A DNA stretch of 64,000 bases from Escherichia phage vB_EcoM_DalCa, in the sequence record NC_054908.1; one strand, given 5' to 3'. The translations under genes and the position numbers were made by a program. This document shows positions 1 through 17,439 of the stretch, in pieces; the first letter of the stretch is position 1; the number at the start of each line of letters is the position of its first letter. Under the pieces are notes generated by a model. The model did not search any database and had not been told where the DNA came from. It worked only from the letters and a program-made list of their open reading frames with translations.

Positions 1-2178
1 TTAGGCCGCAAGGGCCTTCATAGTTTTAGCGATTTGAGAAACTTCATCATCACTTAAAGAGTTGCGATATCCGATGAAGTCGGAAACAATACGGAATTTC
101 TTGGTAAACTCAGCAACCATTTTATCACTGTTTTTTGAAGCATTATTTGATAATACATCAAAAAGATTAGTTACTGTCCAGATGTCATGACCGATGGTAT
201 CTTTTCCACCATTAAAATATACACCGCGCAATGAACTAACTATATTAGCAAGTCGTGTATATTCTTCAGAAACTTCATCTGTACTGAAGTACTTCATCAT
301 AAAATCTAGTTCAGGATACTTGATAATTTTATCAATATATCGTTGAGCTGAACTTGAATAACCTACGTACTTATCATAATCTACATCATCAAAAGCATCT
401 ACATATAAATCACGCAAAGCTTCAAAAATACATTGGCACTGACCGAGTTCTTTTACCTTTTTCTGTAAAAGCGGACGAATAACATAAAATTCATTAATGC
501 CAATAAGATTAGCCATACGAATCAAAATATTCATAGATGGATGACAAAGAGATGTAGTACCATCCATAGAGAAAATATCAGAACGATGCATATACGCTAC
601 ATAACCAGTAATTTCATCTGCTTCTGATGTGAGCGTAAATAATTCCTCTTTTTCCCAGCGCCCGTCTTTAATTTCAAACTTAAATGCTGTAGCAGCTTTA
701 GGACGAGGAGCTTTACTTTTAACTACCTTTGGAATATAGCTTTTAACTAAAGCTTCGATTTCTGACAAATAATGAATGTTAACTTCATCACTTTCAAACA
801 TCGCCATAATATCAGGGAGTAAATCAATCTGCGATTCTACTTCTGGGTTAATAAACAGAAGGCGTTCATTGTGATGAATATTTAAAGTGTTATTAAATTC
901 GCTATCATCTAACGCTCGTGCTAATCCACGAACAATATTAACACGATTTTTAATATTATCAATAACGATATTAATTTTTGTTGTATTAATACCAAACAGA
1001 CGATAACTTGATGCAACGGCTGAAGTTTCATGACTTTGCTTAATGCGCTTCAGTCGAGGGTCAAGATTTACTTCATACACAACTCCTGCATTACATAACT
1101 TATTGTCAGGTTCAAACATGCTCTGCATCTTTTTATATGACAGATTTTTAGTCGTGAATTTGACTGAATTACTAATCATATAATCTCGAGCAGAATATCC
1201 CATCTTCATCAATTCACGATATGTGTGACGAGGAGATGTAGATTCTTTAAATCGTTTTACATCTTCATTAAATGCTTTCTCACTGAGTTCTTTAACTCGT
1301 TCAATAATATTTTTACGAGTACGATCATCCAATGAAAGAGCTTCGCGTGATGGAGCAATATCAAGTGAACCCATTGGAAACTTAATGTAATTCACTTCAT
1401 TGCGGATGCTTAACCAGTTACGGTCTCTAATAACACCATCGATAGGATAAACAATACCACCATAGATAGCATACAATCCATCACGATCTGGCCAGTATCT
1501 TTCTGGATTTACGCCGTAATAGTCATCAAAATCCGGAAAATAATCAATTTCGCGGTCAAGACCATTAATGATAGCCAAATCTTTGAATGGTCGCATGATA
1601 TAAGAAACTTCATAAGCAAAGTTTCTAAAGTCTTTTTCTTCAACTGGAACTACGATTTCAATACCAGTTTTATCATCTGGACCCATTTCTTTTACGAATG
1701 TAGGTTTAATCTGTGGGCCATCACCATCCATGTAAGCTACATAACCACGAATTTCACCTTTATGATACGAAGTAATACTAAACGTATCAGTATAACTAAA
1801 CGGAGATTTAGAACCTAAACCAAATCCGCCAATAAAGTCATTAGATTCAGCTTTAGATGAACTGAAGTATGAATTATACAACCCAGGAGAATTATCATCA
1901 CCTTGAATATCAAAATCACTCATACCCGGACCAAAATCTCGACAAACAAATCGTGGGTCTAAACGTCCAGGAACTTGTATGATAAATTTTTCAGGATTTC
2001 CATTGAGAGCATGGGCATCAATCATGTTAGTAATCAATTCACGAACTACTGCGCGAATCTTGTTTGTATACAAATCAGATGACAGAATTTTAAATACTTT
2101 AGGATTTGCTGCGATGCTAAATGCTTTTGATTTAGAACCATTGCCAAGAATTGTTTCTTTTTCAGTGGTGATAATCAT
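1..2178 (-). CDS. rIIA: rIIA membrane-associated protein
   Basis: 725 aa ORF, same length and genome-origin position as T4 rIIA; stop codon at window positions 1-3. Confidence 0.88.
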
Positions 2179-2188
2179 AATTTCCTCA

Positions 2189-2392
2189 TTAATTCATATT
2201 ACGTTTAATAACTTCAGCAACTTCTAGCAGTTCATCTTTAGTTGCGGTGTCGGATTGAATTTTATCTCTAATATCTTTAAAGCGGTTTTTAAATTCTTCG
2301 GCTTCTCCCATATCGAAAAAGCGTTGAATGATTCTATATTCTCGATGAACTGCTTTATCAAAAAGTTCTAAATTTACTTTATATGATTTCAT
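2189..2392 (-). CDS. small protein upstream of rIIA (rIIA.1-like)
   Basis: 67 aa ORF immediately 5' of rIIA, same position as T4 rIIA.1. Confidence 0.55.
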
Positions 2393-2417
2393 TTCAATAT
2401 CCTCATTTGCCCAATTA

Positions 2418-2447
2418 ATTATACCACATCCTTGTGGTAAAGTAAAC
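2418..2447 (-). promoter_or_regulatory. T4-type early promoter for rIIA.1/rIIA
   Basis: minus strand GTTTAC, 18 nt, TATAAT. Confidence 0.6.
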
Positions 2448-4267
2448 TACTGGCTCATCCATTCTTTACGAAGGTCAGCATTATCTCCCATGAGCATTTC
2501 AAAAAGCTCTTTCCAGTTCTCAGGAAGTTTAACAACATCATATACTGGGTTTTGAATCATCTCACGATATTCAGATTTTTCCAAAGAGCCAAGTCCTTTA
2601 ATATAACGGATGCTATGTTTAGGTAGAGCATCTTTGGCACTCTCATATTCAGCGACTGTATAAAACCATTCTTGTTTTTTACCAATCTGAGCGATGATTA
2701 CAGGAGTTTTGACAAAACGAATTCGTCCTTGCTCAAACAATTCTGGCCAATTACTAAAAAATCCAAGCAGAGAAGGATAAATGCTTCCTAGGCCATCATG
2801 GTCAGCATCAGTCATAATAGCGATATTATGATAATTCAAGTTTTCAGCTTTTTCACCGAGAACTAATCCAGTGATTGCGCAAATATCAAATAGTTCTTTG
2901 TTTTTAAGCATATCTGCATAAGACATACCCCAACTGTTGAGAACTTTACCACGTAATGGATAACCACCGTGAAGTTCTTTATCACGAACATCAATAAGAT
3001 ATCCGATAGCCGAATCACCCTCAGTCAAGAAAAGAGTAGTATCAGCATCTTTACCACAAAGATTCGCTTTAATATGTTTATGAACCTTAGCTTTAGAAGC
3101 CTTTTTAGCTGCTTTAGTTTCTGCTGCTTTTTCTGCCGCCAATTTACGAGCCAAAGCAGCTTCAATAATTGGCATCAGAATTGCTTCATTATTCAAAATA
3201 GCACGTGAAATCTTTTTAGCGTCAAGTTGAATATGACTACGAATTTCGCCAAATGGAGAAGTCAAACGCTCTTTAGTTTGAGAATCAAATCGCATGTTTT
3301 TCATATCACGAACAAACATAACGATAGTCAAACATTCTTTGACACGCGCTTTAGTTACATCAATTTTGAACTTACGTTTGATTTGTGGAATAAGGTCTTC
3401 ACAAATATCATCCATAACACAGTCAATGTGATGGCCACCATTCTTAGTGTGAATGTTATTGACGTATGTTAATTGACGAAAACCATCCGGTGAACGACCA
3501 ACCGCAATAGAACAATTTTCTTGTTCTTGAACGATAGCATGCTCATCATATTGGCGTGCATATTTCTTAAAATTGCCCTGAACCTTTTTACCATTAAAGG
3601 TAAATTGAATATCAGGATAAACTACTGCAAGTGTCTGGAGACGGTCCAGTGTAATGTCAAGATAAACCTGAGACAGCTCATTAGTTTCAAATGACATAAA
3701 ATCAGGAATGAAAGTAACACGAGTTCCTTTCCATTTTCCAGGAATATCTTCCCATGATTTATTTTCCATGCCATTTGAACAACGAACTACAATATTATTT
3801 TGACCATCACCAGTTTCACCGACAAACATCACAGAAAAAATGTTTGTCAAACTAGAACCAACACCATTCATACCGCCAGTGACGCGTTCTTTATCATCAC
3901 CAAAGTTACCACCTGCTTTTGGAATAGTCCACGCAGCAACAGGACCAGGAATTTCTTCACCGGTAGGTGTTTTGACCATCGCTTGTGGAATACCACGACC
4001 GTTATCTTCAACTGTTACTTGATTGTTTTTAATAGTAACATTAATTTTATTTGCGAATTTAAACTTAGTACGAATACCTTCATCTACTGAGTTATCGATA
4101 ATTTCATCAATAAGCTTAACAAGACCAGGTACATACTGAACACTTTCCCATTTACCAAACAGAAAGCGCTCATGCATTTCATTAGCAGAAGAGCCAATAT
4201 ACATGCCACTACGCTTTTTGATATGCTCAATATCGCTCAGAATTTTAATTTCATTCTTAATCATCAC
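2447..4267 (-). CDS. 39: DNA topoisomerase II large subunit, unsplit gp39 (GyrB-like ATPase + Toprim)
   Basis: 606 aa; GHKL ATPase motif VEDNGRGIP, Toprim motifs EGDSA and IMTDADHDG in one continuous frame. Confidence 0.9.
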   Translation of the reverse strand: MMIKNEIKILSDIEHIKKRSGMYIGSSANEMHERFLFGKWESVQYVPGLVKLIDEIIDNSVDEGIRTKFKFANKINVTIKNNQVTVEDNGRGIPQAMVKTPTGEEIPGPVAAWTIPKAGGNFGDDKERVTGGMNGVGSSLTNIFSVMFVGETGDGQNNIVVRCSNGMENKSWEDIPGKWKGTRVTFIPDFMSFETNELSQVYLDITLDRLQTLAVVYPDIQFTFNGKKVQGNFKKYARQYDEHAIVQEQENCSIAVGRSPDGFRQLTYVNNIHTKNGGHHIDCVMDDICEDLIPQIKRKFKIDVTKARVKECLTIVMFVRDMKNMRFDSQTKERLTSPFGEIRSHIQLDAKKISRAILNNEAILMPIIEAALARKLAAEKAAETKAAKKASKAKVHKHIKANLCGKDADTTLFLTEGDSAIGYLIDVRDKELHGGYPLRGKVLNSWGMSYADMLKNKELFDICAITGLVLGEKAENLNYHNIAIMTDADHDGLGSIYPSLLGFFSNWPELFEQGRIRFVKTPVIIAQIGKKQEWFYTVAEYESAKDALPKHSIRYIKGLGSLEKSEYREMIQNPVYDVVKLPENWKELFEMLMGDNADLRKEWMSQ

Positions 4268-4316
4268 TTATCCTCGTTTGGTTTCGGGAATATTATACTC
4301 CGGTAATCATAAAGCT

Positions 4317-4334
4317 AAAGGCCCGAAGGCCTTT
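4317..4334 (-). terminator. GC-rich stem-loop with UUCG tetraloop (transcript sense)
   Basis: aaaggcccgaaggccttt on plus strand, before the gene 39 -10 region. Confidence 0.55.
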
Positions 4335-4606
4335 TATTTAAAACGAATAGTTGAATCCTTAAAGAACAGCCCAGAATATACTGTTCCTTCTACTTTCTGC
4401 CCGGTAGGTCCAATAGCACGAAATCCAGTATGCTGGAAATCATTTTCAGAGCAACCGAACCAGTTATATCCAGTGATTTCAATATTAGTAAACCCACTTG
4501 AAGACAAAACTTTGGTTGCATTATCAGCATCAGTACATCCTACTAAAGATACTGCTAATACTAATGCCGCGATAGAACGATTAACATATTTCATAATTTC
4601 ACTCAA
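4334..4606 (-). CDS. putative lipoprotein
   Basis: 90 aa ORF; hydrophobic signal sequence ending in lipobox-like LVGC; start may be the internal Met (MKYVNRS). Confidence 0.5.
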   Translation of the reverse strand: MSEIMKYVNRSIAALVLAVSLVGCTDADNATKVLSSSGFTNIEITGYNWFGCSENDFQHTGFRAIGPTGQKVEGTVYSGLFFKDSTIRFK

Positions 4607-4976
4607 ATTTAATGGCTTGAAGGAGACTAATAATTCTCAAGCGACTTCTTTCATCTTTAACCGTAAATGAAAGAGGGTCACCAGATTTCATAGTGATAGT
4701 GCATTCAAAATCAAAATCTTCAGGAACTTCTTCGAAGAAGTCAAATTCTTCATCATAAATTAGAACATTACTCTGAAAACTGTGAAGAATTTTTCCATCA
4801 TTTCCAGATGCTGTACTAATCATTGTAACGTTATTACCTTTCATATCTTCAACGATAAATTCGCTTGTAGATATTACATTACTAATAGAACCATTCCTAT
4901 AAATAGCAGAAAATAGATATTTCTTTTCTTCACCTTCGCGAATGCGATATTTCTTACCGATTTTAAACATAATCAC
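4599..4976 (-). CDS. hypothetical protein
   Basis: 125 aa ORF, co-directional, 8 nt overlap with downstream gene. Confidence 0.5.
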   Translation of the reverse strand: MIMFKIGKKYRIREGEEKKYLFSAIYRNGSISNVISTSEFIVEDMKGNNVTMISTASGNDGKILHSFQSNVLIYDEEFDFFEEVPEDFDFECTITMKSGDPLSFTVKDERSRLRIISLLQAIKFE

Positions 4977-5149
4977 CCTTTAAGTAAGTCGTAAAATCCA
5001 CCATTCACATGCTTAGGAGCAGAAACTAACCGAACAGCAATCCGATGACAATCAGGACATACATCAGTATCCCTTTCAGAAATTTTCTTGATTTTTTCGT
5101 ATTCTTTTGCGCAGTCTTTTGATTGACATTTATAATCATAAAGAGGCAT
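4973..5149 (-). CDS. FmdB-type zinc-ribbon small protein
   Basis: 58 aa ORF below the ORF-track cutoff; MPLYDYKCQSKDC...CPDCH pattern; ATG overlaps upstream stop (TAATTATG) and its stop overlaps next start. Confidence 0.5.
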   Translation of the reverse strand: MPLYDYKCQSKDCAKEYEKIKKISERDTDVCPDCHRIAVRLVSAPKHVNGGFYDLLKG

Positions 5150-5151
5150 AA

Positions 5152-5571
5152 TTATTCCTTAAAGTGAGCTTTCAACATCTGATACAAGGACCATGCCTGT
5201 TCATTATTTTCAATAGTAACTTTCATGATCGGGAATTCTGTGAAATCTTCTATTTGTTCTTGCTCTTCCTGCTCTTGTTCTTCAGCTGCCTGATATGGAT
5301 TTTCCACTTCATTAAAGAACTCAGCTTCGCTCGTTGAAAGCCAAATAAAATCTTCATCCAAAATATCTTTACCGGAGGATAACGCCAATCTTCCAGTAGA
5401 TGTCACAATTTTAGTAGGACGACCAAGATGGTCAATATCTATAACTTTAAAAGGTTCCATACCTAAACGCCGCGCATAGATTCCGTTATCAGTATGGTCT
5501 TTAATAAAATTTTCTTGAGCTTGTTTATTTTTAAATTGATACCATTTATTAACTTCAAATTTAATAGCCAT
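5152..5571 (-). CDS. hypothetical acidic protein
   Basis: 139 aa ORF with [10 protein letters not shown] acidic tract. Confidence 0.5.
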
Positions 5572-5789
5572 TAATAAATTTCCTTCCAGTAAGTTGTGCC
5601 ATCTTCAGTGATTTCACGGAATACACCATAAATTGGTTGTTTATCACCGACTTTCTCATATACATAAACCGAAGTCAAGTGAGTAAACTTGATAGTGTGT
5701 TCCTTTTGAACTACTACCAAATCTGGATCGAATAATACATCTTCAAATTCATCATTAGTGCAATTCTGAACAATTTTACGTTTCATCAT
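5571..5789 (-). CDS. hypothetical protein
   Basis: 72 aa ORF, 1 nt overlap with downstream gene. Confidence 0.45.
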
Positions 5790-5960
5790 AATTTCCTCAT
5801 TAATTGAACATTGGAGCGATGCGTTTCAGAAGAGTATCAGCGCACCTTTAACGAATTATCCATTTTATTCTTCAAGTTGTTTTCTGTATCAGTAGTTGAT
5901 ATTGATATAGTACCATAATCAACTACTGATGTATATAGTTTTATGAAAAAATTTTAAACT

Positions 5961-6452
5961 TTATGCATAGCGAGCTTTGCTATAGTGTTTAATCCAACTT
6001 TCAGGAATGACTTTGTATGTTCCTAAAAATACCGCGTTGTATAACTTAACGCCATCTTCTACCCATTGATCAGTAATGTATGCACACATAGCGCGAGTAC
6101 GCCGAGGAAGTGGTTGTCCACCTTCGGTAAATTCAAACTCATAAGGAGCAATGAACTTGATAGCTTGACCAAGTTTCCACTTAAAGTCTACACCTACATG
6201 CGAAGTATCAATCGTTTCAATTCCTTTAGCAGGAACAGCTTTCAAAAACGCAGGCTCAAGAAATTTCCATCGAACATAACCAAACTGGGGCTTAGACATT
6301 CCATCTTTAGCAATGATACGTACTTTTACTTCAGAATCTTCATCTTTAACACCGTGTTTAAGCTGAATGCTTACAACTTCGACCAATTTTCCTGCTGCTT
6401 TAGAACGGGATTTATCAGATACACGAGCAATTTCACCGATATTAATATTCAT
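5961..6452 (-). CDS. hypothetical protein, paralog of 6526..7074
   Basis: 163 aa; C-terminal ITDQWVEDGVKLYNAVFLGTYKVIP resembles C-terminus of neighbouring ORF. Confidence 0.55.
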   Translation of the reverse strand: MNINIGEIARVSDKSRSKAAGKLVEVVSIQLKHGVKDEDSEVKVRIIAKDGMSKPQFGYVRWKFLEPAFLKAVPAKGIETIDTSHVGVDFKWKLGQAIKFIAPYEFEFTEGGQPLPRRTRAMCAYITDQWVEDGVKLYNAVFLGTYKVIPESWIKHYSKARYA

Positions 6453-6525
6453 AATTATCTCTCACTTGTTAAAAAGATTTTATACTCCACAGGACCATTA
6501 TACTCTGGTCCCAAGAGTTTGTAAA

Positions 6526-7074
6526 CTAGCTTACACGAACATTAATCACTGCGCTACGAGGAACTACAGAGTATTCTCCAGCATGAACTACGTTCAGAAG
6601 TTCAACGCCATCTTCAATCCACTGGTCTGTTACCCAACCACAGATAGGATTATCAAAAGGACGACGGATAGACACAGCAGCACACAACAGGTCTGTAGGG
6701 TCTTGTTCTTCAACTTCTTGGAACAGGATGAACTCATCTTCATAAACCAGGTTTTTCTTTATTTTGTTATTATCTAACCGGCGACCGTGGATGACGTAAG
6801 ATTTGTCAAACCACTCACTTTTGGCAAATTCTTCAACAATAAATTCGCCTTCGCCAAAAACATCAGTCAGAGTTTTATGACCAGAAATCAAGGCATTAGT
6901 TTTAATTTTAGGTTCAACCAGTTTGTAGGTTTTGCCGATTTCAATAGCGGTAGTCATAGTAGGTTCCTTAATTTCCAGTGGTTTAACAGGGCATACATAA
7001 GTGCTTACAACATCAAAATCAATCAGTTTAGCTACCGGATTTGGTATGTATTCAGGATTATAATTAAATTTCAT
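6526..7074 (-). CDS. hypothetical protein, paralog of 5961..6452
   Basis: 182 aa; C-terminal VTDQWIEDGVELLNVVHAGEYSVVP. Confidence 0.55.
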   Translation of the reverse strand: MKFNYNPEYIPNPVAKLIDFDVVSTYVCPVKPLEIKEPTMTTAIEIGKTYKLVEPKIKTNALISGHKTLTDVFGEGEFIVEEFAKSEWFDKSYVIHGRRLDNNKIKKNLVYEDEFILFQEVEEQDPTDLLCAAVSIRRPFDNPICGWVTDQWIEDGVELLNVVHAGEYSVVPRSAVINVRVS

Positions 7075-7076
7075 AA

Positions 7077-7577
7077 TTATCTCATTTCAATAAAATCTAC
7101 GAGTTCAGCATGCGATTTGCGGAACATTACTTGGTGCCCACCAATGATAACTTCATCTTCAGGAACTTCGTATACAGCGAGATAAAATCCTTTAGAAGAT
7201 AATTCTTCCCGCTCTTCTCGTGTGAACCATCTCATCATATCATATTCACTAGCGAAAGCAAAATGATAAAGACCTATAAACCATCCTGGAATATGATATT
7301 CTACTCCAACATAATCTTTCTTGAACTTAGTATTAATTACTATATTAGCGTTTTTAACTAATAGTTTATCTTCGTGTGGTAAAGGAATTCTTTTATTATT
7401 ATCGCTATGATGCATAAAATTAGGTCTGTCATAACCTACGTGTAATAGCCACTCTTCGCTCCATGAATCTATTATACTCCTGTACGGCGTTATTTGAACA
7501 CAAAGATTTCGACGTATTGTTATAGCATCTTCATAATCAAGAATACTAAACGATGATTCAACACGATAAATTTTCAT
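7077..7577 (-). CDS. hypothetical protein
   Basis: ORF-track ORF 7077..7616; likely start at internal Met (MKIYRVESS) preceded by GAGGA; longer start would overlap the promoter at 7600..7634. Confidence 0.5.
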   Translation of the reverse strand: MKIYRVESSFSILDYEDAITIRRNLCVQITPYRSIIDSWSEEWLLHVGYDRPNFMHHSDNNKRIPLPHEDKLLVKNANIVINTKFKKDYVGVEYHIPGWFIGLYHFAFASEYDMMRWFTREEREELSSKGFYLAVYEVPEDEVIIGGHQVMFRKSHAELVDFIEMR

Positions 7578-7599
7578 TTTATTATCCTCAGTAGCTATG

Positions 7600-7634
7600 G
7601 TGTTATAATACCACAACTAACCGAGGAAGTAAAC
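7600..7634 (-). promoter_or_regulatory. T4-type early promoter
   Basis: minus strand GTTTAC then TATTATAA. Confidence 0.5.
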
Positions 7635-7640
7635 AACTTT

Positions 7641-8324
7641 TTATCGTTTTGTTGGAAGAGATAGAGGATCGCAATCTTCCTCTGACGGAGCATCTTCAAG
7701 ACCCATAGCATATCGCAAAGCATACTTCATCATCAGAATATCTTTCGCACAGTCATGAATAGAATCATGCGCAACGAATCCATCTAAAGTTCCTTTTGGA
7801 AGAGGACACGTGGTCATATCACGAACAAGCAGAAGTGCTTCAATTCTGGTACGAATATCACGCTGATTCCAGAATTTACATGGTTCTAACTTAAATGTGT
7901 CAAGCTCATTCTCAGAAACACCATTAAGACGTTGAATATCACGAATGAGATCGACTAAAATTGGAAAATCAAACGACATTCCACGGCACCAGCCTTGAGA
8001 TTTCCAAGGATCGATATTATGTGCATTGATGTAATCATTAAATTTTGCAATACCATCGATGGTGCTTACATCTTCATCTGATGGTGCAATATTTTTTCGA
8101 GCTTCAGGAGACTGATTTTTCCACCATTCGATAGTGCTTTTAGTAAAAAGACGATGTCCTTTTTGGCTTTTTAAATCAAATTTGATTTTAATGCCGCGTG
8201 AAACTAATTCATCAAATGTTTCAACTACTTCTGGGTTAGGGTCAAAAGCAATTACAGCTAAATCAATAACAGCTGCTTTTTCACCACTTCCCATTGTTTC
8301 AAAATCTATAATAAAATCAAACAT
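7641..8324 (-). CDS. dexA: exonuclease A (DEDDh 3'-5' exonuclease)
   Basis: 227 aa as T4 DexA; N-terminal DFETMG exonuclease motif; position upstream of dda. Confidence 0.85.
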   Translation of the reverse strand: MFDFIIDFETMGSGEKAAVIDLAVIAFDPNPEVVETFDELVSRGIKIKFDLKSQKGHRLFTKSTIEWWKNQSPEARKNIAPSDEDVSTIDGIAKFNDYINAHNIDPWKSQGWCRGMSFDFPILVDLIRDIQRLNGVSENELDTFKLEPCKFWNQRDIRTRIEALLLVRDMTTCPLPKGTLDGFVAHDSIHDCAKDILMMKYALRYAMGLEDAPSEEDCDPLSLPTKR

Positions 8325-8599
8325 TAAATTTTCCTTGCTAAATCGCGAATTTGACCTACAGTATAATCTTGAATATAAACTTTATTAATAGGTTCATCAA
8401 TAAATTTTGCCATAGATTCAATATCTTTTTGCATCTCTTCAAGACTGTATATTATCTTTAAAGCTTTTTCGCGAATAGTAATATTTTCAGGACCAGAATT
8501 TTTCTCAATGACAGCTTTAACATTTGTCATAAGAGATTTAAACTGTTGCAAACTTAATTCAATCATTAATAACCGCCTTATAAAGATGGCTAATTTCAC
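8324..8599 (-). CDS. hypothetical protein (dexA.1-like)
   Basis: 91 aa ORF; start uncertain. Confidence 0.45.
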   Translation of the reverse strand: MKLAIFIRRLLMIELSLQQFKSLMTNVKAVIEKNSGPENITIREKALKIIYSLEEMQKDIESMAKFIDEPINKVYIQDYTVGQIRDLARKI

Positions 8600-8819
8600 C
8601 TAAAATGTAATCACTGATTGTAACAGTTTTTACTTCACCACAAAAGAATTCTAACGCAATTAAATCTCGTTCAATTTCTTCTAATTGAAGCATTAACTTT
8701 CCAGATTCAATTTTTACATTTCTACGATTTTTACTATAAGCTATTTCATAAATTTCGCTCACTTTATCTTGAAGCAGATAAAACTGGTCTTTAGTTATTT
8801 CCACGAATAGCTTCCTCAA
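8559..8819 (-). CDS. hypothetical protein (dexA.2-like)
   Basis: 86 aa ORF. Confidence 0.45.
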   Translation of the reverse strand: MRKLFVEITKDQFYLLQDKVSEIYEIAYSKNRRNVKIESGKLMLQLEEIERDLIALEFFCGEVKTVTISDYILGEISHLYKAVIND

Positions 8820-9051
8820 ATTTAATTAGTAATTTACAGACACTTTCATCTAGTGTAATTACCGTATCTGTATTACTGTGATATGATTGTTTTTCAATTC
8901 GTTTAATTGCTAATATAGTATCACTTATAAGATAAAGCTTATGAAGGAGCTCAGCTCCTGTTACCATAACATCGAGATTATCTTGCTTATTAGTATGCTT
9001 CCTTATACCATCTATTAGACGGTTTAAATATTTTGAATTGATGTTAATCAT
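8791..9051 (-). CDS. hypothetical protein
   Basis: 86 aa ORF between dexA block and dda. Confidence 0.45.
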   Translation of the reverse strand: MININSKYLNRLIDGIRKHTNKQDNLDVMVTGAELLHKLYLISDTILAIKRIEKQSYHSNTDTVITLDESVCKLLIKFEEAIRGNN

Positions 9052-9057
9052 ATAGCC

Positions 9058-10377
9058 TCACACATAAAACACATCATAACGACCACGTGTTACACCAACA
9101 TAAAGAAGTTGTTGAGCTAATTCAGCATCTGCATAATGAATACAAGGCGTATAAATGAAAGCACGGTCTACAGACATACCCTGAGCTTTATGGAATGTTG
9201 ATGCAGGAAGTGCTTTCACTTTACTAAACTGTGATTTAGCATCCCAAAAATCACTCCATGGAGCTTTTCCGCCTTTGTTCCAATTTTTATAAGTTTCTGC
9301 CGTTTTACCTAAAAATAGGTTAAACTTATACAATTCTTCATCGGATGAAATTATTTTAATCTTTTCACGATAATATTCATCATCGCCGTAAGTTTCTACT
9401 GTTAAATCCCAATGACGAATTAGATATTCCCCAGGAACACCACGAGCTTTAACAAACGTTGATGTATACTCAGCTTCTATAATACGAACTAATTGTCCGT
9501 TATTAAAAATAATTTCTGATACAGGCTTTCCATCAATTTTATATGTTTTAATTAATGGTTCCTGCATTACAATAATTTCACCGACAATAAAATCTTTATC
9601 AGTTTCAAAAATCTTTTTACGAATAATGCTATTTAACTTGTCAACAGATTTATTCGTAAATGCCATTACGCGATTTTCAAACAAATCATCTAAAGATTTG
9701 ACGATTGAAAAATAATTTACCATAAAATCGCGTAAAGCGGTATCACCAGTAAATCCACGTACTCCATGCCCGTCAACAACTTTATCATAAATCCACTTAC
9801 CGTTACGAACGTCAGTAGCTACATCAATAATAGGAGCATTACTGCGTTTAACTTCAGTAAGTTCACACTGATAAAAATCTTTATGTGTAAAGAATGGACT
9901 GATATAAGCAGTGTTTTCTCCTGGGTCAACAGGTCTAATTTGCTTATTATCGCCTATTCCAATTATAGTACACCAAGGTGGGATAGTTGAAAGCAGAATT
10001 TTAAACAGCTTTCTATCATACATTGACACTTCGTCACAGATTAATACTCTGCATTTAGCTAAATCTGGTACTTCCTTCTGCTCAAAGAGGACATTTTCTT
10101 CATATGTTACTGGGTTAATTTTAAGAATACTATGAATAGTACTCGCTTCTTTCCCTGATAGTTTTGAAAGAATCTTTTTAGCTGCATGAGTAGGAGCTGC
10201 TAAAATAATACCAGTTTCACCCGTAGATATTAAAGCTTCAATGATGAACTTAGTAAGAGTAGTCTTACCGGTACCGGCAGGTCCATTAATAGTTACATGA
10301 TGTTTCTTTTCTTTAATAGCCTTCATAACAATGTTAAAGGCATTTTTCTGGCCTTCGGTCAAATCATCAAATGTCAT
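9058..10377 (-). CDS. dda: Dda SF1B DNA helicase
   Basis: 439 aa as T4 Dda; Walker A GPAGTGKTT near N-terminus. Confidence 0.9.
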   Translation of the reverse strand: MTFDDLTEGQKNAFNIVMKAIKEKKHHVTINGPAGTGKTTLTKFIIEALISTGETGIILAAPTHAAKKILSKLSGKEASTIHSILKINPVTYEENVLFEQKEVPDLAKCRVLICDEVSMYDRKLFKILLSTIPPWCTIIGIGDNKQIRPVDPGENTAYISPFFTHKDFYQCELTEVKRSNAPIIDVATDVRNGKWIYDKVVDGHGVRGFTGDTALRDFMVNYFSIVKSLDDLFENRVMAFTNKSVDKLNSIIRKKIFETDKDFIVGEIIVMQEPLIKTYKIDGKPVSEIIFNNGQLVRIIEAEYTSTFVKARGVPGEYLIRHWDLTVETYGDDEYYREKIKIISSDEELYKFNLFLGKTAETYKNWNKGGKAPWSDFWDAKSQFSKVKALPASTFHKAQGMSVDRAFIYTPCIHYADAELAQQLLYVGVTRGRYDVFYV

Positions 10378-10685
10378 CGTAAATTCCCTGCAATTGGTAT
10401 ACTAACAATACGCCCAGTATCTAAAATTCGCTGATATAATCTTTGCGTGTCTACGTCAGGCTTAACATGTTTAACTTCTATTTTATTAAACCAAAATTTA
10501 CGTGGAGTCTCAACTAATCTTGGAATTCCCTTACCTAAAGCTAGTCGATACTGCTCTTTAAGAGTAGTAAATACTTTATCAGCAATATTCCATTCAAAAA
10601 ATACAGCAGGACGATGTTCATCAAGCGGAACTGGCGCCGTAAATCCGTCTTTGTCTCGGTAAACTATCGCGTATACATAAACCAT
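10374..10685 (-). CDS. hypothetical protein (dda.1-like)
   Basis: 103 aa ORF, 4 nt overlap with dda. Confidence 0.5.
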   Translation of the reverse strand: MVYVYAIVYRDKDGFTAPVPLDEHRPAVFFEWNIADKVFTTLKEQYRLALGKGIPRLVETPRKFWFNKIEVKHVKPDVDTQRLYQRILDTGRIVSIPIAGNLR

Positions 10686-10686
10686 A

Positions 10687-11433
10687 TTATCCTCGGATAA
10701 GTTTAAAAATTGAACAATTTAGCGGGTATCCTCTTTTCAGTTTAAGTTTATCAATAAAAGACAAATTTTGATACCGCTCTACACCTTGAATAATTTTATC
10801 ACACATATCATATTGCATTTCTGCTTCTGACAACTTTTTCACAATTTTCCAATCCGAGCCTTTAAGAAGAACGTTCAGTTTAACAACTTCAGCGCCTTCT
10901 GCTATGCGAGAACCATCAATACGAGCTTTAAGTGCTATAATCCTTAGCTTAATGTCAGAGGTCTGTTTTGATTTAGAAAGCTGAGAAATGTGTTCAATTC
11001 GGTTTTCACGTTTTTTCTGTATAGCTTTAATTTGATTATAAGTCTTTTTGATTTTAGCCCATTTCTTTTCATCTAAATTTAGTTTATGAACTTTTTTCGC
11101 AGATGAACGACCAATTCGCAAAGCAAATAAATCACGCTTTTCAATCAACTCTTCTAAAGTATAATCAGAACGAAATGTATTATACTTTTTCTTTACTGCA
11201 ATAACATTCCCTTTAATGTATCCAACGTTATTATCAAAACGTTCTAATGATAATTTCTCTCCTTCAACACGATTATCAAAAGGTTCTCCTGAGTAAGCAC
11301 AAACTTTCTGATCTAAAATGTTCTTAATGTAATTGAAGTCTAAGTTAAAATCTTTAGAACGTCTTTTTGCAGATGCCTGGGTATGCTCTAGACGACGTTT
11401 AATTTTACGAATTTGGTTATTAGACAGCTTCAT
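10687..11433 (-). CDS. Srd-like protein (by size and position)
   Basis: 248 aa basic protein between dda.1 and modA, where T4 srd (about 250 aa) lies; assignment not sequence-verified. Confidence 0.5.
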   Translation of the reverse strand: MKLSNNQIRKIKRRLEHTQASAKRRSKDFNLDFNYIKNILDQKVCAYSGEPFDNRVEGEKLSLERFDNNVGYIKGNVIAVKKKYNTFRSDYTLEELIEKRDLFALRIGRSSAKKVHKLNLDEKKWAKIKKTYNQIKAIQKKRENRIEHISQLSKSKQTSDIKLRIIALKARIDGSRIAEGAEVVKLNVLLKGSDWKIVKKLSEAEMQYDMCDKIIQGVERYQNLSFIDKLKLKRGYPLNCSIFKLIRG

Positions 11434-11555
11434 ATTTTTCTCACATCTTACGGACGGTTAACTACTTATACTATAACATTTTTACTTTAACTTGTAAACA
11501 ACTTTATGAAAAATGCTTTAAAACTTTCATGGTATAATGAATCTAAGTCCTTCCA

Positions 11556-12158
11556 TTACAGATTAAATCCTTCAAAATCAAGAGTATAGATAGTGTATGT
11601 TGAATACTTTTTGTATTCATATCTATCTGCAATTCTAAATACACTTCCAGCTGGTATCATTACTTCTTGTTCATCTGAAACTAATTCCATATTACGATAA
11701 CGATGACTATCCGGAAACTTAAAGTTTGGATTGTATTCTTTACAGCGTAGAGCTTTTATAGCATACTCCTGGAAATTGAATACCATAGGAGCTTTGAATT
11801 CAAAAATAACTTGTGTGTTATACTCTAAACCGGAAGCAAAATGTAGAGCTATATTTTTATCATATGAAGCTGATACGACTTTATCAAATGTAATAATATC
11901 AATTCCTTGATTTAATACTTGTTTAGTCTCAGCTGGAACACCTCTCCAAAGAGGTTTATCGTTTGGAACCAAACGAGATTTGATTATTTCATTTAACCAA
12001 GAATGATCGTCTGGTTTATTAGTAATACAATGAATTAAAAGTTCAATTTCAGATAAATTAAACCCTTCAGAAAGTAATTCTTCACGAATAGAAGCACGCA
12101 CCGATGCATCCATTGATTTTATTTTAAAATCTTTTAGTTGCATTACTGAGTATTTCAT
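11556..12158 (-). CDS. modA: ADP-ribosyltransferase ModA
   Basis: 200 aa as T4 ModA; R-S-ExE motif elements (LWRGV, SDEQEVMIPAG). Confidence 0.75.
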   Translation of the reverse strand: MKYSVMQLKDFKIKSMDASVRASIREELLSEGFNLSEIELLIHCITNKPDDHSWLNEIIKSRLVPNDKPLWRGVPAETKQVLNQGIDIITFDKVVSASYDKNIALHFASGLEYNTQVIFEFKAPMVFNFQEYAIKALRCKEYNPNFKFPDSHRYRNMELVSDEQEVMIPAGSVFRIADRYEYKKYSTYTIYTLDFEGFNL

Positions 12159-12778
12159 TCAACTACCTCAATATCATAAACTTTAAATGTTCCAAATGAA
12201 TCGTGTAATTTTTCTTTTGAAATAGAAGTTATTCTATACTTTCCAATTGGAATCATCCATTCCTGTTCACGCACAATCATCATTAAGTTATCAGTACGTT
12301 CTGAATCTAATCCATCAGTATCTTCATATGTATACTTAAACTCAGTATTAGGAGAAGAAAGTATAATATCGCTGATATGGTCAGAATAATTAAAAGCTTT
12401 ATCAGTTTTTAAGCGAAGTACTATTTCAGTGAAATATTCAGCATAAGAAAAAGAACACGCTGTATGCAAACTAGTAGTAAATGAATCTACTCTGTTCGTT
12501 GAAAACACTTCTCCAACTTGTAAATCTTTAATGAGTTCTTTTGTCGATTTTGATATACCACGATATAGCTGATAAGGTGATTTAGTTAAATGCTTTTTAA
12601 TGATTTTATTCAACTGCCGATGAAGAGCTTCATTCTTTTTGGCTTCCATACATTGCCAAAGAACTGACTGCTCAAAGTCAGTAAATTTTTCACAGACTTT
12701 TTTATACATATCATATTGAAAATCAACGCTTTCAGCTTTTATAGATAACTGTTCAACATCTGCAAGATTAATAATCAT
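12155..12778 (-). CDS. modB: ADP-ribosyltransferase ModB
   Basis: 207 aa as T4 ModB; paralog of ModA with YRGIS and VREQEWMIPIG motifs. Confidence 0.75.
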   Translation of the reverse strand: MIINLADVEQLSIKAESVDFQYDMYKKVCEKFTDFEQSVLWQCMEAKKNEALHRQLNKIIKKHLTKSPYQLYRGISKSTKELIKDLQVGEVFSTNRVDSFTTSLHTACSFSYAEYFTEIVLRLKTDKAFNYSDHISDIILSSPNTEFKYTYEDTDGLDSERTDNLMMIVREQEWMIPIGKYRITSISKEKLHDSFGTFKVYDIEVVE

Positions 12779-12804
12779 GATAGCCTCCGTATACTTCAGA
12801 AGCT

Positions 12805-12834
12805 ATCATATCATCGTTAGAAAGGAAAGTAAAC
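12805..12834 (-). promoter_or_regulatory. T4-type early promoter upstream of modB
   Basis: minus strand GTTTAC, 18 nt, TATGAT. Confidence 0.5.
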
Positions 12835-12845
12835 AACTTTTTGAA

Positions 12846-13028
12846 TTATTTTGCCCAGGGAGCCCAAGGCGGAGGGTCAAGATGGTATGAAGCTAGTTCT
12901 TCTAGAAGAGCATCTGGGGCTTCAATTCCATAATTCTGTAATACTATACGGTACTCTTTCTTATAATCACTAGAATCATTCTGGTTATTCGTAGAATGAT
13001 TATCTTCTAACATCTCAAATAAATCCAT
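12846..13028 (-). CDS. hypothetical protein
   Basis: 60 aa ORF. Confidence 0.4.
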   Translation of the reverse strand: MDLFEMLEDNHSTNNQNDSSDYKKEYRIVLQNYGIEAPDALLEELASYHLDPPPWAPWAK

Positions 13029-13036
13029 ATTAATTC

Positions 13037-13507
13037 CTAGCGATAAAAACCAAATTGACGATTAGCTTCAATAATCTTTCTTTCTTCTTCGGACATTCTC
13101 CAGCGTAGTCCAACATCAAAATGGGCCCAGACCATCTTAACAAATGCATTTATATCTTTAATATCTTCAATAATGAATGTTTTACTTTTCGAAGGTTGAC
13201 TCGCTAATTTAACTTTATCATCTTCAAACAGGTCAAAAAGACCATATTCATGAGCTCTTTTATAGCCTTTAATAGTTAAAGCTTCAGAAGAAGAAAACGG
13301 TGAATCAGTATTCTGCAAAATATCTTCAGTATGCTTTATAATTAGAATAATATTTTCTGGATATTTTCTTTCTTTTATATCTTTAATTAAAAAATCCGGA
13401 TTTTCTGCTAAAGGAATAATTAATGAGCATTTTTTATCAAGTGTATTTACTGATTTACCTTCTTTAGACATGAATTCTACTGAATAATGTTTTGCTACTT
13501 CAATCAT
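13037..13507 (-). CDS. hypothetical protein
   Basis: 156 aa ORF. Confidence 0.5.
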
Positions 13508-13664
13508 GTGATTTCCTTTTGCCTACTAATGGACCATCGGGAATTTTGTTTTCCTGGATATATTTCTCATTTTCTTCCATCATTTTACTACCAATTTTAA
13601 GAAGCAAATCCAGTGCTTCATTTGCTTTAACCTTAGCTTCTTCTAACGTCATATCTTTGTTCAT
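13500..13664 (-). CDS. small hypothetical protein
   Basis: 54 aa ORF read by hand ([13 protein letters not shown]...); ATG overlaps upstream stop as ATGA. Confidence 0.35.
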
Positions 13665-13864
13665 GATTTATCCCCATAGATGTCTCTCATCAATTTAAGC
13701 GCTGAGCGCTCTAATTTCTTTTCTTTCTCAGCGCTAATCATTGATTTCATCCATTCTTCCGATTCGTTCTGCATTTCTTTATTTGCTTGTTCAACCCAAC
13801 CATCATCAATATACATTGAGTTTGGTCTATTGAACCATTCAAACATTTTCTTCAGAACTTTCAT
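13661..13864 (-). CDS. hypothetical protein
   Basis: 67 aa ORF. Confidence 0.4.
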
Positions 13865-14336
13865 TTGTTTTACCTAAAACAATAGTAGGATTATCGTCAA
13901 ATTCATGAATTTTTAGCAAATTTGGATGTAAACTATTCCATACAGAAGAAATAAAGTATGATAAAGCGTCTTCACTCGCAATTATAAATTTATTTCCTTT
14001 ATCTATTTTCCAACTATATAATGAATCGTACGAATAGAAAGATAAAGGTTTATCATTATATTGTTCTGCGCTAACATTAATGTATTCGGATTTAGTAAAT
14101 GCTTCAATTGCTCTAAATGGAATATTTGGCACAGTTTCAATAATACCAATCTTTTTAAGTTTTATTTCAGCATCTTCTGGAACTGGCATTGAAACGAAAT
14201 TTTCTACGAGATACATTGGGTCACAATAACCCTTATCAATCATTACGGCTACAGTAATTGGAACATCTTTAGCAAATGACATGCTATTACTGTTAATATA
14301 CATTTCAAACAAAATAGCTTCCATAATTTTCCTCAA
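13839..14336 (-). CDS. hypothetical protein
   Basis: 165 aa ORF in the mrh region of the T4 map. Confidence 0.5.
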
Positions 14337-14674
14337 TCACAAGACGTAGATGAACAACTAGAATCACAAGAACTTCCACATGAATCGCCTGCCCATACAT
14401 GAACAGGAACATTCGTATCATATGAATCAGAACTAGACTGTGTATTCTGCGTATTAGATGATGTAGTAGGTGTTGACCAGCGCCAAGGATTTTTATAATA
14501 TTCTTGGGCTTCTTCATAAGTCATAGTAACTGCTTCTACTGTTCCATCTCCCATATAAACATACTCAACTACAGTTAAAGGAAGGTAGTCATTTGAAATA
14601 GGAACTACACCTTCTCCGGGAGTCGTAGAGAAAAAATCCGTAAAGAAACTTTTAAACCAATTAAAGATAAACAT
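14333..14674 (-). CDS. hypothetical protein with Cys/Ser-rich C-terminal tail
   Basis: 113 aa; C-terminus [18 protein letters not shown]. Confidence 0.45.
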
Positions 14675-14880
14675 TACAAAAAGCCTCTCTTGAATTCGAC
14701 TTGCTTTTCACCATAATCATATCGAATCTCTGCATTAAATTCGACAGAACCATCTGCGTACATCATAAATGAATGCACAATAACTTCTGTAGACCATGGC
14801 TGTAATTCATATTTCTTCATTACATGTCGTGAAATGATAATATCTAAATCTTCATTCGGTTTAATCCAACGATTTAACAT
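14674..14880 (-). CDS. hypothetical protein
   Basis: 68 aa ORF downstream of promoter 14907..14936. Confidence 0.45.
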   Translation of the reverse strand: MLNRWIKPNEDLDIIISRHVMKKYELQPWSTEVIVHSFMMYADGSVEFNAEIRYDYGEKQVEFKRGFL

Positions 14881-14906
14881 AGTGCTCTCCTCTATAAGAT
14901 AATTCT

Positions 14907-14936
14907 ATTATACCATACTCATTTTGGAAAGTAAAC
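14907..14936 (-). promoter_or_regulatory. T4-type early promoter
   Basis: minus strand GTTTAC, 18 nt, TATAAT; just downstream of soc terminator. Confidence 0.6.
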
Positions 14937-14970
14937 CGGTAAAATGAAAAAGGACTCCCGAAGGAGTCCT
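14926..14970 (-). repeat. promoter-plus-hairpin module, copy 1
   Basis: ggaaagtaaaccggtaaaatgaaaaa + hairpin; near-identical copy at 55896..55939. Confidence 0.7.
14951..14970 (-). terminator. stem-loop terminator downstream of soc
   Basis: aggactcccgaaggagtcct; U-run on minus strand; followed by early promoter. Confidence 0.65.
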
Positions 14971-14977
14971 TGAATTA

Positions 14978-15214
14978 TTAACCATCTATTGATGTAGGCG
15001 TAAACATTGCAGCATTCTTAGTTTTCCAGTCAGCTGCATCAGAAACTACAGTAGAATATGCTGCCTTTTCAGAAGGAAAGGTCTGATAATGAGAATTTGC
15101 AATACGATGCTCGTTAGAATAGATTTCAAACGGAACAGAAACTTCCATACCTTTAACTTCTTTGCCTTCACCTGCTGGATGAGTAAAGGTCTTTATATTA
15201 ACGAAACCACCCAT
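14978..15214 (-). CDS. soc: small outer capsid protein Soc
   Basis: 78 aa; HYQTFPSEKAAYSTV segment matches T4 Soc from memory; followed by hairpin terminator. Confidence 0.85.
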   Translation of the reverse strand: MGGFVNIKTFTHPAGEGKEVKGMEVSVPFEIYSNEHRIANSHYQTFPSEKAAYSTVVSDAADWKTKNAAMFTPTSIDG

Positions 15215-15253
15215 AATAAACTCCTTTATTGTTTAATTACAGGTGTATTTATA

Positions 15254-15427
15254 TCAATCTTCAATGAAAACTTGTGCCAGGAATTCATGCTCATCTTGAA
15301 TTTGTTTATATAAAGCCATTACAGCATTTATGTTAGAGCTATCTACTTTAAGTTGATAAGCATACCACTCATGTAAATTAATTAAAGCTTTTTGACGTCT
15401 AATAAATTCTTCTTTGGATATTTTCAT
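15254..15427 (-). CDS. small hypothetical protein
   Basis: 57 aa ORF read by hand (MKISKEEFIRRQ...); ATGA overlap with upstream stop. Confidence 0.35.
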   Translation of the reverse strand: MKISKEEFIRRQKALINLHEWYAYQLKVDSSNINAVMALYKQIQDEHEFLAQVFIED

Positions 15428-15624
15428 TTTGAATGCTCTATAATTAATTTTAAGGCTTCTTCACTGACAAAAATTTCGTCAGGACCTTTTTCTACAACCC
15501 AATCAACCATACGAAGCTGATTAGAAAAGAGCTCACATACGAGCTCCTTGTCATAATCTTTAAATAGCTGGTCAATACGCTTCTTGCGGGCTTTCTTGAG
15601 CTGGCGTTTAAATAAACGAGCCAT
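15424..15624 (-). CDS. hypothetical basic protein
   Basis: 66 aa ORF downstream of gene 56. Confidence 0.45.
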   Translation of the reverse strand: MARLFKRQLKKARKKRIDQLFKDYDKELVCELFSNQLRMVDWVVEKGPDEIFVSEEALKLIIEHSK

Positions 15625-16142
15625 TAATATCCTCTGTCTTGACGAGCGAAGTTTTCAGCATTTTTCAGATAATAAAGTTTAAAGATTTCCTCAGCTGACA
15701 TTCCAAGAGCAATGAATTTATTCATGAAAAAGTGAAATTGATCAATCAGTTCAAATTTAATTTCAAGCTGATCTTCGGGAGATAAATCTTGAATTTTCTT
15801 GGATTGCATTTCAGAATAACGTTTCTTCCAAGGTTTCCATACGGCAGAAGCTTCTTTTTCACCATTACTCATACCACCAAGAGAAGTATATAGCTCGCGA
15901 GTTTCATCTGCGATATAATCGTCTTGGTTTCGCAACCAAGCAAGAACTTCTCCTGCAGTTTCAAGTGAATCAGGATGACGATTTGTTTCTGGTTTATCAT
16001 TAGCCAAACGAATCTGTAAAGACCGCTGCATATCAAGCATAACCTGCAATGGGTCAATATTGTGCATAATATTCTCAGCATATGCACGAGTTGCTTTATC
16101 AACACCTTCGATCAAATGAGCACATTCATTAAAGTGAGCCAT
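15624..16142 (-). CDS. 56: dCTP pyrophosphatase gp56
   Basis: ORF-track ORF extends to 16235 but internal Met (MAHFNECAHLIEG) gives 171 aa, matching T4 gp56, with AGGA RBS upstream. Confidence 0.85.
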   Translation of the reverse strand: MAHFNECAHLIEGVDKATRAYAENIMHNIDPLQVMLDMQRSLQIRLANDKPETNRHPDSLETAGEVLAWLRNQDDYIADETRELYTSLGGMSNGEKEASAVWKPWKKRYSEMQSKKIQDLSPEDQLEIKFELIDQFHFFMNKFIALGMSAEEIFKLYYLKNAENFARQDRGY

Positions 16143-16213
16143 TATTTTTCCTTTCAATTCATGGATTAATAGATTAATTATACAATAAATATATAAAGCA
16201 ATAAGGAGGACAT

Positions 16214-16414
16214 ATGGTACAAAAATTAATGGCACTTGTTAATGCCATCAAAGGTAATAAGAAACGTATAGCTTTTACTATTTCTGCTATGGTAGGAATT
16301 TTACTCTGGAACTTTATTTTATCACCAATTGCAATTGCGCATGGTGTTAATATTCCAGTAGTTACTCTTGATACATTCGTAGATCTAGCATTTGCTTTAG
16401 TTGGGTTAATTTAA
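16214..16414 (+). CDS. small single-pass membrane protein (plus strand)
   Basis: 66 aa ORF with AAGGAGG 4 nt before ATG; hydrophobic core; only convincing plus-strand ORF in window, in the 56-61 intergenic gap. Confidence 0.45.
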   Translation: MVQKLMALVNAIKGNKKRIAFTISAMVGILLWNFILSPIAIAHGVNIPVVTLDTFVDLAFALVGLI

Positions 16415-17439
16415 ATCTTGGCATATTTAGATAACCGCATTTTAGCCATTAACCCCTGGGCAATATTATTTTTCATATATTCCATAATTTGTTCAGGGGT
16501 TGCACCTTCCTTTCTAATCATATCATTAACATCTTTTGATTTCCAGGGAGATTTATCCCAAAACATAACCCTTTCTCCTGCATCAACTAATTTAGTCATT
16601 CGCTTGATAGTGTCAGGGTGACGAGGTTCATTATCTAAAACCCACACTCGTCTATCTTTAAATGGAATAACTTCTAGGTCTAATTGACCACCCGTAATAG
16701 CTATACCATTTTCAATAAAAAGCGAATCTATAGGTCCTTCTAGAACATATACATCACCATCTTTGACTCGTTCGACTCCATAGATTTTTGTTGCCTCAGG
16801 ATAAGCTTTGATGGTGATATATTTTTGAGGAGCATCTTTCTTTAATGCACGTCCTTGAAAAGACTCAGCTTTTCCGTTAGCATTATAAATTGGAATAACA
16901 AGACGAGGCTCAGGTGTTTCCTTTTTATATGTTCCTGGAGCTATACTATTAACTAATTTAGGCCATTCAGTTGTAAACCAAAGATATTTCCATTTATCCT
17001 TTGGAATACAACGAGCTTTTACATATTTTATAATTGGATGGTCTTCCGCCAATTTATCTAATCTGATGCATGACGGAAGAGATTTAATTATTTTCTTCTC
17101 AGGTTGTTTAGGAAGTTCTTTAGGTTTTTCTACTGGACGACTTTTACCTTTTTCTTTTCTTATTTCAAAGATATACTCACGATATAAATCAGGTTCAAAC
17201 TCCTTTAAATATATTCCGATTGGTGCATGATAGTTACAGTTATAACAATGAATATTTCCTTCATTATTATCGCCATAATACCATCCACGGGCTTTATTTT
17301 GATCGGTTTTTGAATCTCCACAAACGGGACATCTAAACCGTAATTTAAAAGTTGAACTATTATTTACTTGTGCGAATTTAGGTAAATGAGCCAATGCACG
17401 GTATGCAAACTCATTATCAATCCAAGGTATTGATGACAT
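16411..17439 (-). CDS. 61: DNA primase gp61
   Basis: 342 aa as T4 gp61; N-terminal zinc ribbon CPVCGDSKTD...CYNC; Toprim-like core. Confidence 0.9.
   Translation of the reverse strand: MSSIPWIDNEFAYRALAHLPKFAQVNNSSTFKLRFRCPVCGDSKTDQNKARGWYYGDNNEGNIHCYNCNYHAPIGIYLKEFEPDLYREYIFEIRKEKGKSRPVEKPKELPKQPEKKIIKSLPSCIRLDKLAEDHPIIKYVKARCIPKDKWKYLWFTTEWPKLVNSIAPGTYKKETPEPRLVIPIYNANGKAESFQGRALKKDAPQKYITIKAYPEATKIYGVERVKDGDVYVLEGPIDSLFIENGIAITGGQLDLEVIPFKDRRVWVLDNEPRHPDTIKRMTKLVDAGERVMFWDKSPWKSKDVNDMIRKEGATPEQIMEYMKNNIAQGLMAKMRLSKYAKI

Follow-up and report, generated by a model that had tools for sequence, protein, structure and literature searches.

An uninterrupted gene 39 at the MobA insertion site of Escherichia phage vB_EcoM_DalCa

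We analyzed a 64,000-nucleotide stretch of the genome of Escherichia phage vB_EcoM_DalCa (NC_054908.1), referred to below as the window, and found that its gene 39 (2447..4264, minus strand) is almost certainly an intact, never-split Tequatrovirus allele that encodes a 605-aa GyrB-like topoisomerase subunit and represents an uninvaded 'empty site' for the MobA cassette. In T4, the ancestral large-subunit gene has been split by a cassette comprising the HNH homing endonuclease MobA and a 50-nt bypass (10.1101/2022.08.31.505936), and mobA has been described as dividing a gene that is whole in related phages (Edgell et al. 2010, PMC2988022). The uninterrupted form of the gene is already known: it is well described in T2, T6, and their relatives, and has been recognized from the time when T2, T4, and T6 were compared.

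Results

Extent and start codon of gene 39

The ORF listing of the window contains one minus-strand frame at 2447..4267, which would encode 606 aa if begun at a GTG codon. The very next codon in the same frame is an ATG (4264..4262). The sequence upstream of the gene contains a Shine-Dalgarno motif that is 6 nt from the ATG and just 3 nt from the GTG, and the ATG start is the one annotated in T2, T6, and phage ASO78A, giving 605 aa. Based on this spacing and on these annotations, we assigned gene 39 to 2447..4264 (605 codons plus stop); the GTG is probably not the start and the ATG is preferred. The start-site features and the gene are as follows.

4265..4267, minus strand: in-frame GTG, one codon 5' of the ATG (sequence GAGGATAAGTGATG)
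4275..4271, minus strand: Shine-Dalgarno motif GAGGA, read from the sequence
2447..4264, minus strand: gene 39, uninterrupted, large (GyrB-like, ATPase plus Toprim) subunit of a phage type IIA topoisomerase (ORF, BLASTP, Pfam, and PDB match)

A sequence-only reading of this DNA had described gene 39 as a single uninterrupted ORF with a frame of 606 aa. The single ORF was confirmed, with T4 gp39 and gp60 collinear within it, and only the length needed a trivial correction, as the count of 606 included the GTG. At the base composition of this DNA, the chance of an open frame of 606 codons is ~1e-18, with ~1e-13 expected per whole window.

Domains and catalytic motifs

We searched the predicted protein for domains and motifs and found that it carries HATPase_c (E=2e-9), DNA_gyraseB (E=1.5e-13), and TOPRIM_C Pfam domains. 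The motif search located the GHKL ATPase motifs, namely the N-box EIIDNSVDE (aa 54-62), DNGRG (aa 87-91), and GMNGVG (aa 131-136), as well as the QTK loop of the transducer (aa 329-331). Both Toprim motifs, EGDSA and DADHDG, lie in the same frame, so that the whole Toprim domain (catalytic Glu plus DxD acidic cluster) is on one polypeptide. This bears out the earlier description of the ATPase and Toprim regions as sharing one ORF.

3125..4264, minus strand: GHKL ATPase and transducer region (motif search and Pfam; PDB 9imj covers residues 1-380)
3008..3022, minus strand: Toprim catalytic-glutamate motif EGDSA, aa 415-419, located on gp39 in T4
2792..2809, minus strand: Toprim acidic motif DADHDG, aa 486-491, located in T4 on gp60 immediately 5' of the take-off codon

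In a PDB search, the protein matched chain C of 8ylu, the T6 topoisomerase II, over its full length (residues 1-605), while an artificially fused T4 gp39-gp60 chain matched it in two stretches. Yeast and human topoisomerase II and ParE each gave one continuous alignment over residues 6-605 that spanned the junction between the parts corresponding to gp39 and gp60. This unbroken alignment to non-phage type IIA enzymes indicates that a contiguous Toprim domain is the general type IIA state and that the T4 split is derived. GyrB, ParE, and the N-terminal half of eukaryotic topoisomerase II likewise combine a GHKL ATPase, a QTK-loop transducer, and the Toprim E and DxD motifs, but these enzymes are distant (E values of 1.6e-59 to 8.8e-21, compared with 0 for the T6 and T4 chains). 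The phage enzyme is described as relaxing rather than supercoiling DNA, with gp52 as its partner (PMC11461880).

Comparison with the split genes of T4

We compared the window with the T4 reference (NC_000866). By BLASTP, with residues numbered from the ATG, residues 1-473 were 98.5% identical to T4 gp39 1-473 and residues 472-605 (134 residues) were 94.8% identical to T4 gp60 27-160. The alignment with gp39 and gp60 suggested in the sequence-only reading thus shows a C-terminal region that is clearly related to gp60. At the nucleotide level, blastn matched window 1-2782 to T4 12-2793 (97.7% identity) and window 2847-4596 to T4 3911-5661 (96.8% identity). Between these matched flanks, the blastn breakpoints leave 64 bp in the window (2783-2846) and 1117 bp in T4 (2794-3910).

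2783..2846, minus strand: 64-bp 'parental' segment, gene nt 1419-1482; T4-type phages have the 1117-bp MobA cassette instead (T4 2794-3910)

The 1117-bp stretch of T4 holds a 43-aa C-terminal tail of gp39, the mobA pseudogene, 60.1, an N-terminal head of gp60 of ~30 aa, the annotated 50-nt bypass region, and a substitute copy of the replaced segment. The substitute copy has diverged from the window segment (78% identical over 46 nt). We searched the whole 64-kb window for the gp39 C-terminal tail, the gp60 head, gp60.1, the mobA fragment, and the 50-nt gap using tblastn, blastn (word size 7), and tblastx, and obtained only chance-level matches (best E=0.11). The sole match of T4 2794-3910 was the short copy of the replaced segment, which aligned to gene 39 itself. 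A weak match to gp60.1 near 59970-60062 was dismissed, as it lay in the terminal part of a 153-aa ORF that is unrelated. Neither gp39 nor gp60 had a second copy in the 64 kb.

We also compared the take-off site codon by codon. Gly491, the position equivalent to the T4 take-off codon, is encoded by GGC in the window (2794..2792), and the next three codons are CTA GGA AGC (L G S), so that the window reads GAT GGC CTA GGA AGC (D G L G S) where T4 reads GAT GGA, a 50-nt stretch beginning with TAG, and then TTA GGT TCT. The coding gap found in T4 after gp60 Gly46 (take-off GGA, stop, hairpin, and landing GGA) is absent from the unbroken codons of the window. Together with the window-wide searches, this agrees with the earlier statement that a separate gene 60, a bypass element, and mobA are all missing. 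The two phages encode the same enzyme in flanking DNA that is 97-98% identical; however, T4 needs a ribosome hop and the assembly of split Toprim halves, whereas the gene 39 of the window needs neither. Its translation is ordinary, with no stop codon, hairpin, or coding gap where T4 ribosomes hop.

Comparison with T2, T6, and ASO78A

Gene 39 of T2 and of T6 has the same coordinates (2447..4264) and length (605 aa) as that of the window. The proteins differ by 2-3 aa (99.5-99.7% aa identity), and the genes differ by silent changes and a few conservative substitutions only (96.2% nt identity to T2 and 97.5% to T6). The comparison with T2 gp39 proposed earlier therefore gave equal length and coordinates. 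The surroundings of the gene are also alike, with a 39.1-like ORF upstream and rIIA.1 and rIIA downstream. For the two-subunit topoisomerase II of T6, cryo-EM structures are available (8ylu, 8yo1, and others). The closest record in this region was phage ASO78A, with 98.0% identity over gene 39 and 98.2% over window 2100-4700.

Neighboring genes and signals

The next gene downstream is rIIA.1, separated from gene 39 by a spacer of 54 nt; its direct succession to gene 39 had been noted from the sequence and was confirmed by Pfam. The spacer contains an early-promoter-like site, and in ASO78A the homologous position carries an early-promoter annotation. Upstream of gene 39, a hairpin is followed by a site resembling T4 middle promoters. 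The homologous positions of ASO78A are annotated as a terminator and a middle promoter, and we regard the elements in the window as a putative terminator and a putative middle promoter; the consensus terminator scan did not detect the minus-strand hairpin upstream of gene 39.

2189..2392, minus strand: rIIA.1, 67 aa (Pfam T4_RIIA1, E=1.4e-33)
1..2178, minus strand: rIIA, 725 aa (ORF; 97.7% nt identity to the T4 rIIA region; annotation of homologous records)
2418..2446, minus strand: early-promoter-like site TTTACT-17-TGgTATAAT in the 54-nt spacer (consensus scan 10/12 plus extended -10 TG)
4292..4333, minus strand: hairpin (GGCCTTCGGGCC plus T), then T4 middle-promoter-like site GCTT-N14-TATAAT, upstream of gene 39 (read from the sequence)

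An uninvaded allele and predicted target of the MobA cassette

We located the breakpoints in gene coordinates at nt 1418/1419 and 1482/1483, with the 64-bp segment ending 9 nt after Gly491. The element of clade 1 has been reported to delete 64 nt, to insert around Topo2L nt 1399-1419, and to end 9 nt beyond G491 (10.1101/2022.08.31.505936). The agreement between the breakpoints in the window and these published boundaries identifies the window as carrying the 'parental', uninvaded Topo2L allele. Parental Topo2L alleles of clade 1 were described by Manning & Atkins 2022, e.g., in RB14, with the same breakpoints; the window is a further member with no substantive difference. The corresponding gene of RB14 is annotated as '60plus39'.

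The 64-bp segment is common to T2, T6, and ASO78A, and its flanks are 97-98% identical to those in the cassette-bearing T4. The segment shows two silent differences from T2 (ATC vs ATT at Ile481 and GGC vs GGT at Gly491) and two differences from T6, including GGC vs GGT at Gly491.

According to the account of Bonocora et al. 2011 given in a later study (10.1101/2022.08.31.505936), the uninterrupted gene of T2 is nicked by intact MobA, and in the course of mixed infection T2 acquires the split together with the gap. In the same account, the nick site lies inside the replaced segment and the gap shields the invaded genome from being cut again. By comparison with T2, the homing and nick site for MobA would lie within 2783..2846, and gene 39 of the window is a predicted homing substrate for MobA in mixed infection. 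In T4, a mobile cassette has taken the place of 64 bp of this gene, bringing in MobA, new sequence for the gp39 tail and the gp60 head, a stand-in for the segment that it displaced, and the 50 nt of the bypass. The silent changes (ATC at Ile481 and GGC at Gly491) could conceivably alter recognition by MobA and make this a naturally MobA-resistant uninvaded site, which we consider highly improbable.

Frequency of the uninterrupted gene

We determined how often the junction is contiguous using a 301-bp probe centered on it. The probe matched 497 phage records, and the junction was contiguous in 453 of these (~91%) and found in two separate places in 41. A longer query was unfit for counting uninterrupted genes, as pieces up to ~1.8 kb apart were joined and T4-type records were included (506 of 544 records covered at least 80%). 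A search with the T4 insert found the T4-type insert in 43 records, comprising T4 strains, RB55, RB59, HY01, HY03, and some others. An uninterrupted gene is therefore what is found by default, and the split seen in T4 is exceptional.

What the state of gene 39 says about lineage

The sequence-only reading had also placed the phage with T2/T6-type relatives on the basis of gene 39. We found that the locus itself is of the T2/T6 type, but that the placement of the lineage was over-read from a default state and a mobile cassette. Over the shared coding parts, nucleotide identity was 96.9% to T4, 96.2% to T2, and 97.5% to T6, which makes T4 no more distant than the other two. Over the first 57 kb of the window, identity was 95.4%, 96.0%, and 96.0%, respectively. 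The window was covered by T2 over 53.1 kb, by T6 over 52.8 kb, and by T4 over 47.7 kb (the T4 figure being slightly low, since the T4 stretch used ends earlier). The nearest records were the Tequatrovirus isolates C2-3, JK23, AV119/120, and ASO78A, at about 97-98%.

The glucosyltransferase region provided a second comparison. The T4 beta-glucosyltransferase gene (beta-gt) is absent from the window. The interval between uvsX and 42 instead contains the 280-aa ORF of T2 and T6 (98.6% and 97.9% identity, respectively; Pfam TAGT), which is annotated elsewhere as beta-glucosyl-HMC-alpha-glucosyltransferase. The glucosyltransferase region and the coverage lean towards T2/T6, and this support comes from loci other than gene 39. 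In HY03 and 215Ecol030PP, the T4-type MobA insert occurs together with the T2/T6-type beta-alpha-glucosyltransferase region. This combination shows that the presence of the cassette varies independently of the remaining genome, which is what a homing element would be expected to do. The state of gene 39 is a presence/absence polymorphism of a mobile element. Being the usual condition and uncoupled from other markers, the uninterrupted gene is a poor phylogenetic marker, and placing a lineage by it is only weakly justified.

Discussion

The protein encoded by gene 39 is likely to act in the way known for its closest relatives. Activity has been shown for the T6 topoisomerase II holoenzyme, and the enzyme has two subunits in T2 and T6 and three in T4, both forms being active (PMC11461880). 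With 99.5% aa identity to T6 gp39, the protein of the window would be expected to carry out ATP-dependent strand passage. By homology, gp39 would bind and hydrolyze ATP, clamp the transported duplex, and supply the Toprim metal site. Together with gp52 it should form an A2B2 enzyme like the solved T6 enzyme, driving one duplex through a transient double-strand break at the expense of ATP. This activity, the partnership with gp52, and the sensitivity to MobA are all predicted from at least 99.5% identity to the T2 and T6 proteins. No gp52 homologue was found by tblastn within the 64-kb window; gene 52 of T4 lies at 163.9-165.2 kb, outside the region covered by the window, and gp52 would be encoded beyond the window.

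We considered other histories that could have led to an uninterrupted gene. The gene could be a revertant: the MobA cassette may have entered it in the past and then been lost again, for example when a co-infecting phage supplied an uninvaded allele for recombination. T-even phages have mosaic genomes that undergo free recombination, cassette status is independent of other markers, and cassette decay and 'hit and run' cases have been reported in other clades (10.1101/2022.08.31.505936). However, the window shows no scar and nothing left over from the gp39 tail or the gp60 head, and the 64-bp segment is of the parental type seen in T2, T6, and ASO78A rather than the T4 substitute copy with its 78% identity over 46 nt. 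We therefore consider a restored gene unlikely, with the note that a clean parental replacement would leave a sequence like that of a never-invaded gene, so that both histories predict the same present-day gene and function.

The opposite direction of change, in which the split of T4 would be ancestral and the single gene would have arisen later by the joining of genes 39 and 60, has a hearing in the literature, as 'gene-fusion or gene-separation' was left undecided in the introduction of the structural paper (PMC11461880). The continuous alignment of cellular and eukaryotic type IIA enzymes across the junction effectively refutes it. In addition, the T4 split cuts a single Toprim domain, parting EGDSA from DxDxD, and the T4 insert is the minority state and brings with it a gene for a homing endonuclease as well as ~70 residues that no homologue has. 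A fusion is thus extremely improbable, and the same holds for the suggestion that the long ORF is an artefact of assembly or annotation, such as a collapsed cassette. Nothing was found in favor of an artefact, while the same contiguous junction occurs in 453 independent phage records, T2 and T6 have identical length and coordinates, and the frame and catalytic motifs are intact. An intact gene that was never split remains by far the best reading of this locus, and none of our observations speaks against it.

These results have consequences for annotation and typing. We suggest annotating the gene as topoisomerase II large subunit (gp39, '39+60' type), and the programmed bypass and split-gene annotation of the T4 reference should not be carried over to 2447..4264. 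The presence or absence of a homing cassette is unsuited to assigning T-even phages to lineages. If the allele were MobA-resistant after all, it would represent a second route of immunity against a homing endonuclease, one that does not involve the bypass cassette. Beyond the right annotation the importance of the finding is small; it adds one more uninvaded target allele for MobA and the bypass. Uninvaded phages of this kind are natural recipients for homing experiments and partners for defining the boundaries of the cassette.

Discrepancy in gene 39 of the T4 reference

Just ahead of the QTK loop, gp39 reads MRFDSQTK in the window, T2, and T6, but MRLIRQTK in the T4 reference (NC_000866). 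The site corresponds to codons 326-328 of T4 gene 39, at about 3281..3289 in the window. At the DNA level, CGATTGATTCGTCAA and CGATTTGATTCTCAA underlie MRLIRQTK and MRFDSQTK, and they differ by a -1/+1 shift that compensates itself, which suggests that the T4 version is an old sequencing error rather than a true difference.

Genes upstream of gene 39

Three ORFs were identified 5' of gene 39:
4334..4606, minus strand: 90-aa homologue of gp39.1
4599..4976, minus strand: 125-aa ORF of the 371-bp stretch 4597..4967
4973..5149, minus strand: 58-aa zinc-ribbon protein (Pfam Zn_ribbon_8)

The 90-aa ORF was 98% identical to T4 gp39.1 over 62 aligned aa, but T4 gp39.1 is only 65 aa long and lacks the N-terminal extension found in the window. 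This added N-terminal part, MKYVNRSIAALVLAVSLVGC..., resembles the signal peptide of a lipoprotein, so the T4 reference copy of gp39.1 may be truncated or have the wrong start. The 371-bp stretch is missing between 39.1 and 39.2 in T4. Megablast matched it in both T2 and T6, and T6 has an ORF annotated at the position equivalent to the 125-aa ORF. Neither the 90-aa nor the 125-aa ORF had any Pfam match.

At the position of the zinc-ribbon protein, T4 has gp39.2, which carries the T4 annotation FmdB-like regulator. AP018813 and AP018814, the records for T2 and T6, clearly misname the products of this gene and many of its neighbours, using labels such as 'baseplate wedge subunit' and 'anti-repressor'. 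These two records are unfit as annotation sources.

Gene content relative to T4

We compared gene content between positions 1..57000 of the window and 1..57000 of T4. Within this range, no close homologue was found for dam or for the homing-endonuclease genes segF, mobB, mobC, and I-TevII, and soc was only 47% identical to its T4 counterpart. For several short stretches of the window, megablast found no counterpart in any of the three phages T4, T2, and T6 (for example, 14985-15421, 28082-28296, 37720-37979, 39855-40178, and 51797-52288).

The region between uvsX and gene 42

Two ORFs were located in this region:
21864..22706, minus strand: 280-aa ORF (Pfam TAGT)
22703..23344, minus strand: 213-aa ORF, lying between the 280-aa ORF and gene 42

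The 213-aa ORF is absent from the corresponding place in T2, T6, and T4. A free-standing homing endonuclease is the probable identity of this ORF, given a NUMOD3 match below threshold and weak partial similarity to SegA (T4 segA; 42% over 71 aa). At ≥95% identity, the ORF is present in 76 phage records; two of these, HY03 and 215Ecol030PP, carry the MobA cassette as well.

The 280-aa ORF, named beta-glucosyl-HMC-alpha-glucosyltransferase in other phage records, was 98.6% and 97.9% identical to the ORFs of T2 and T6, respectively, and no T4 beta-glucosyltransferase was found in the window. This combination implies, as judged from gene content, that DNA glucosylation in this phage would be of the T2/T6 type (gentiobiosyl).
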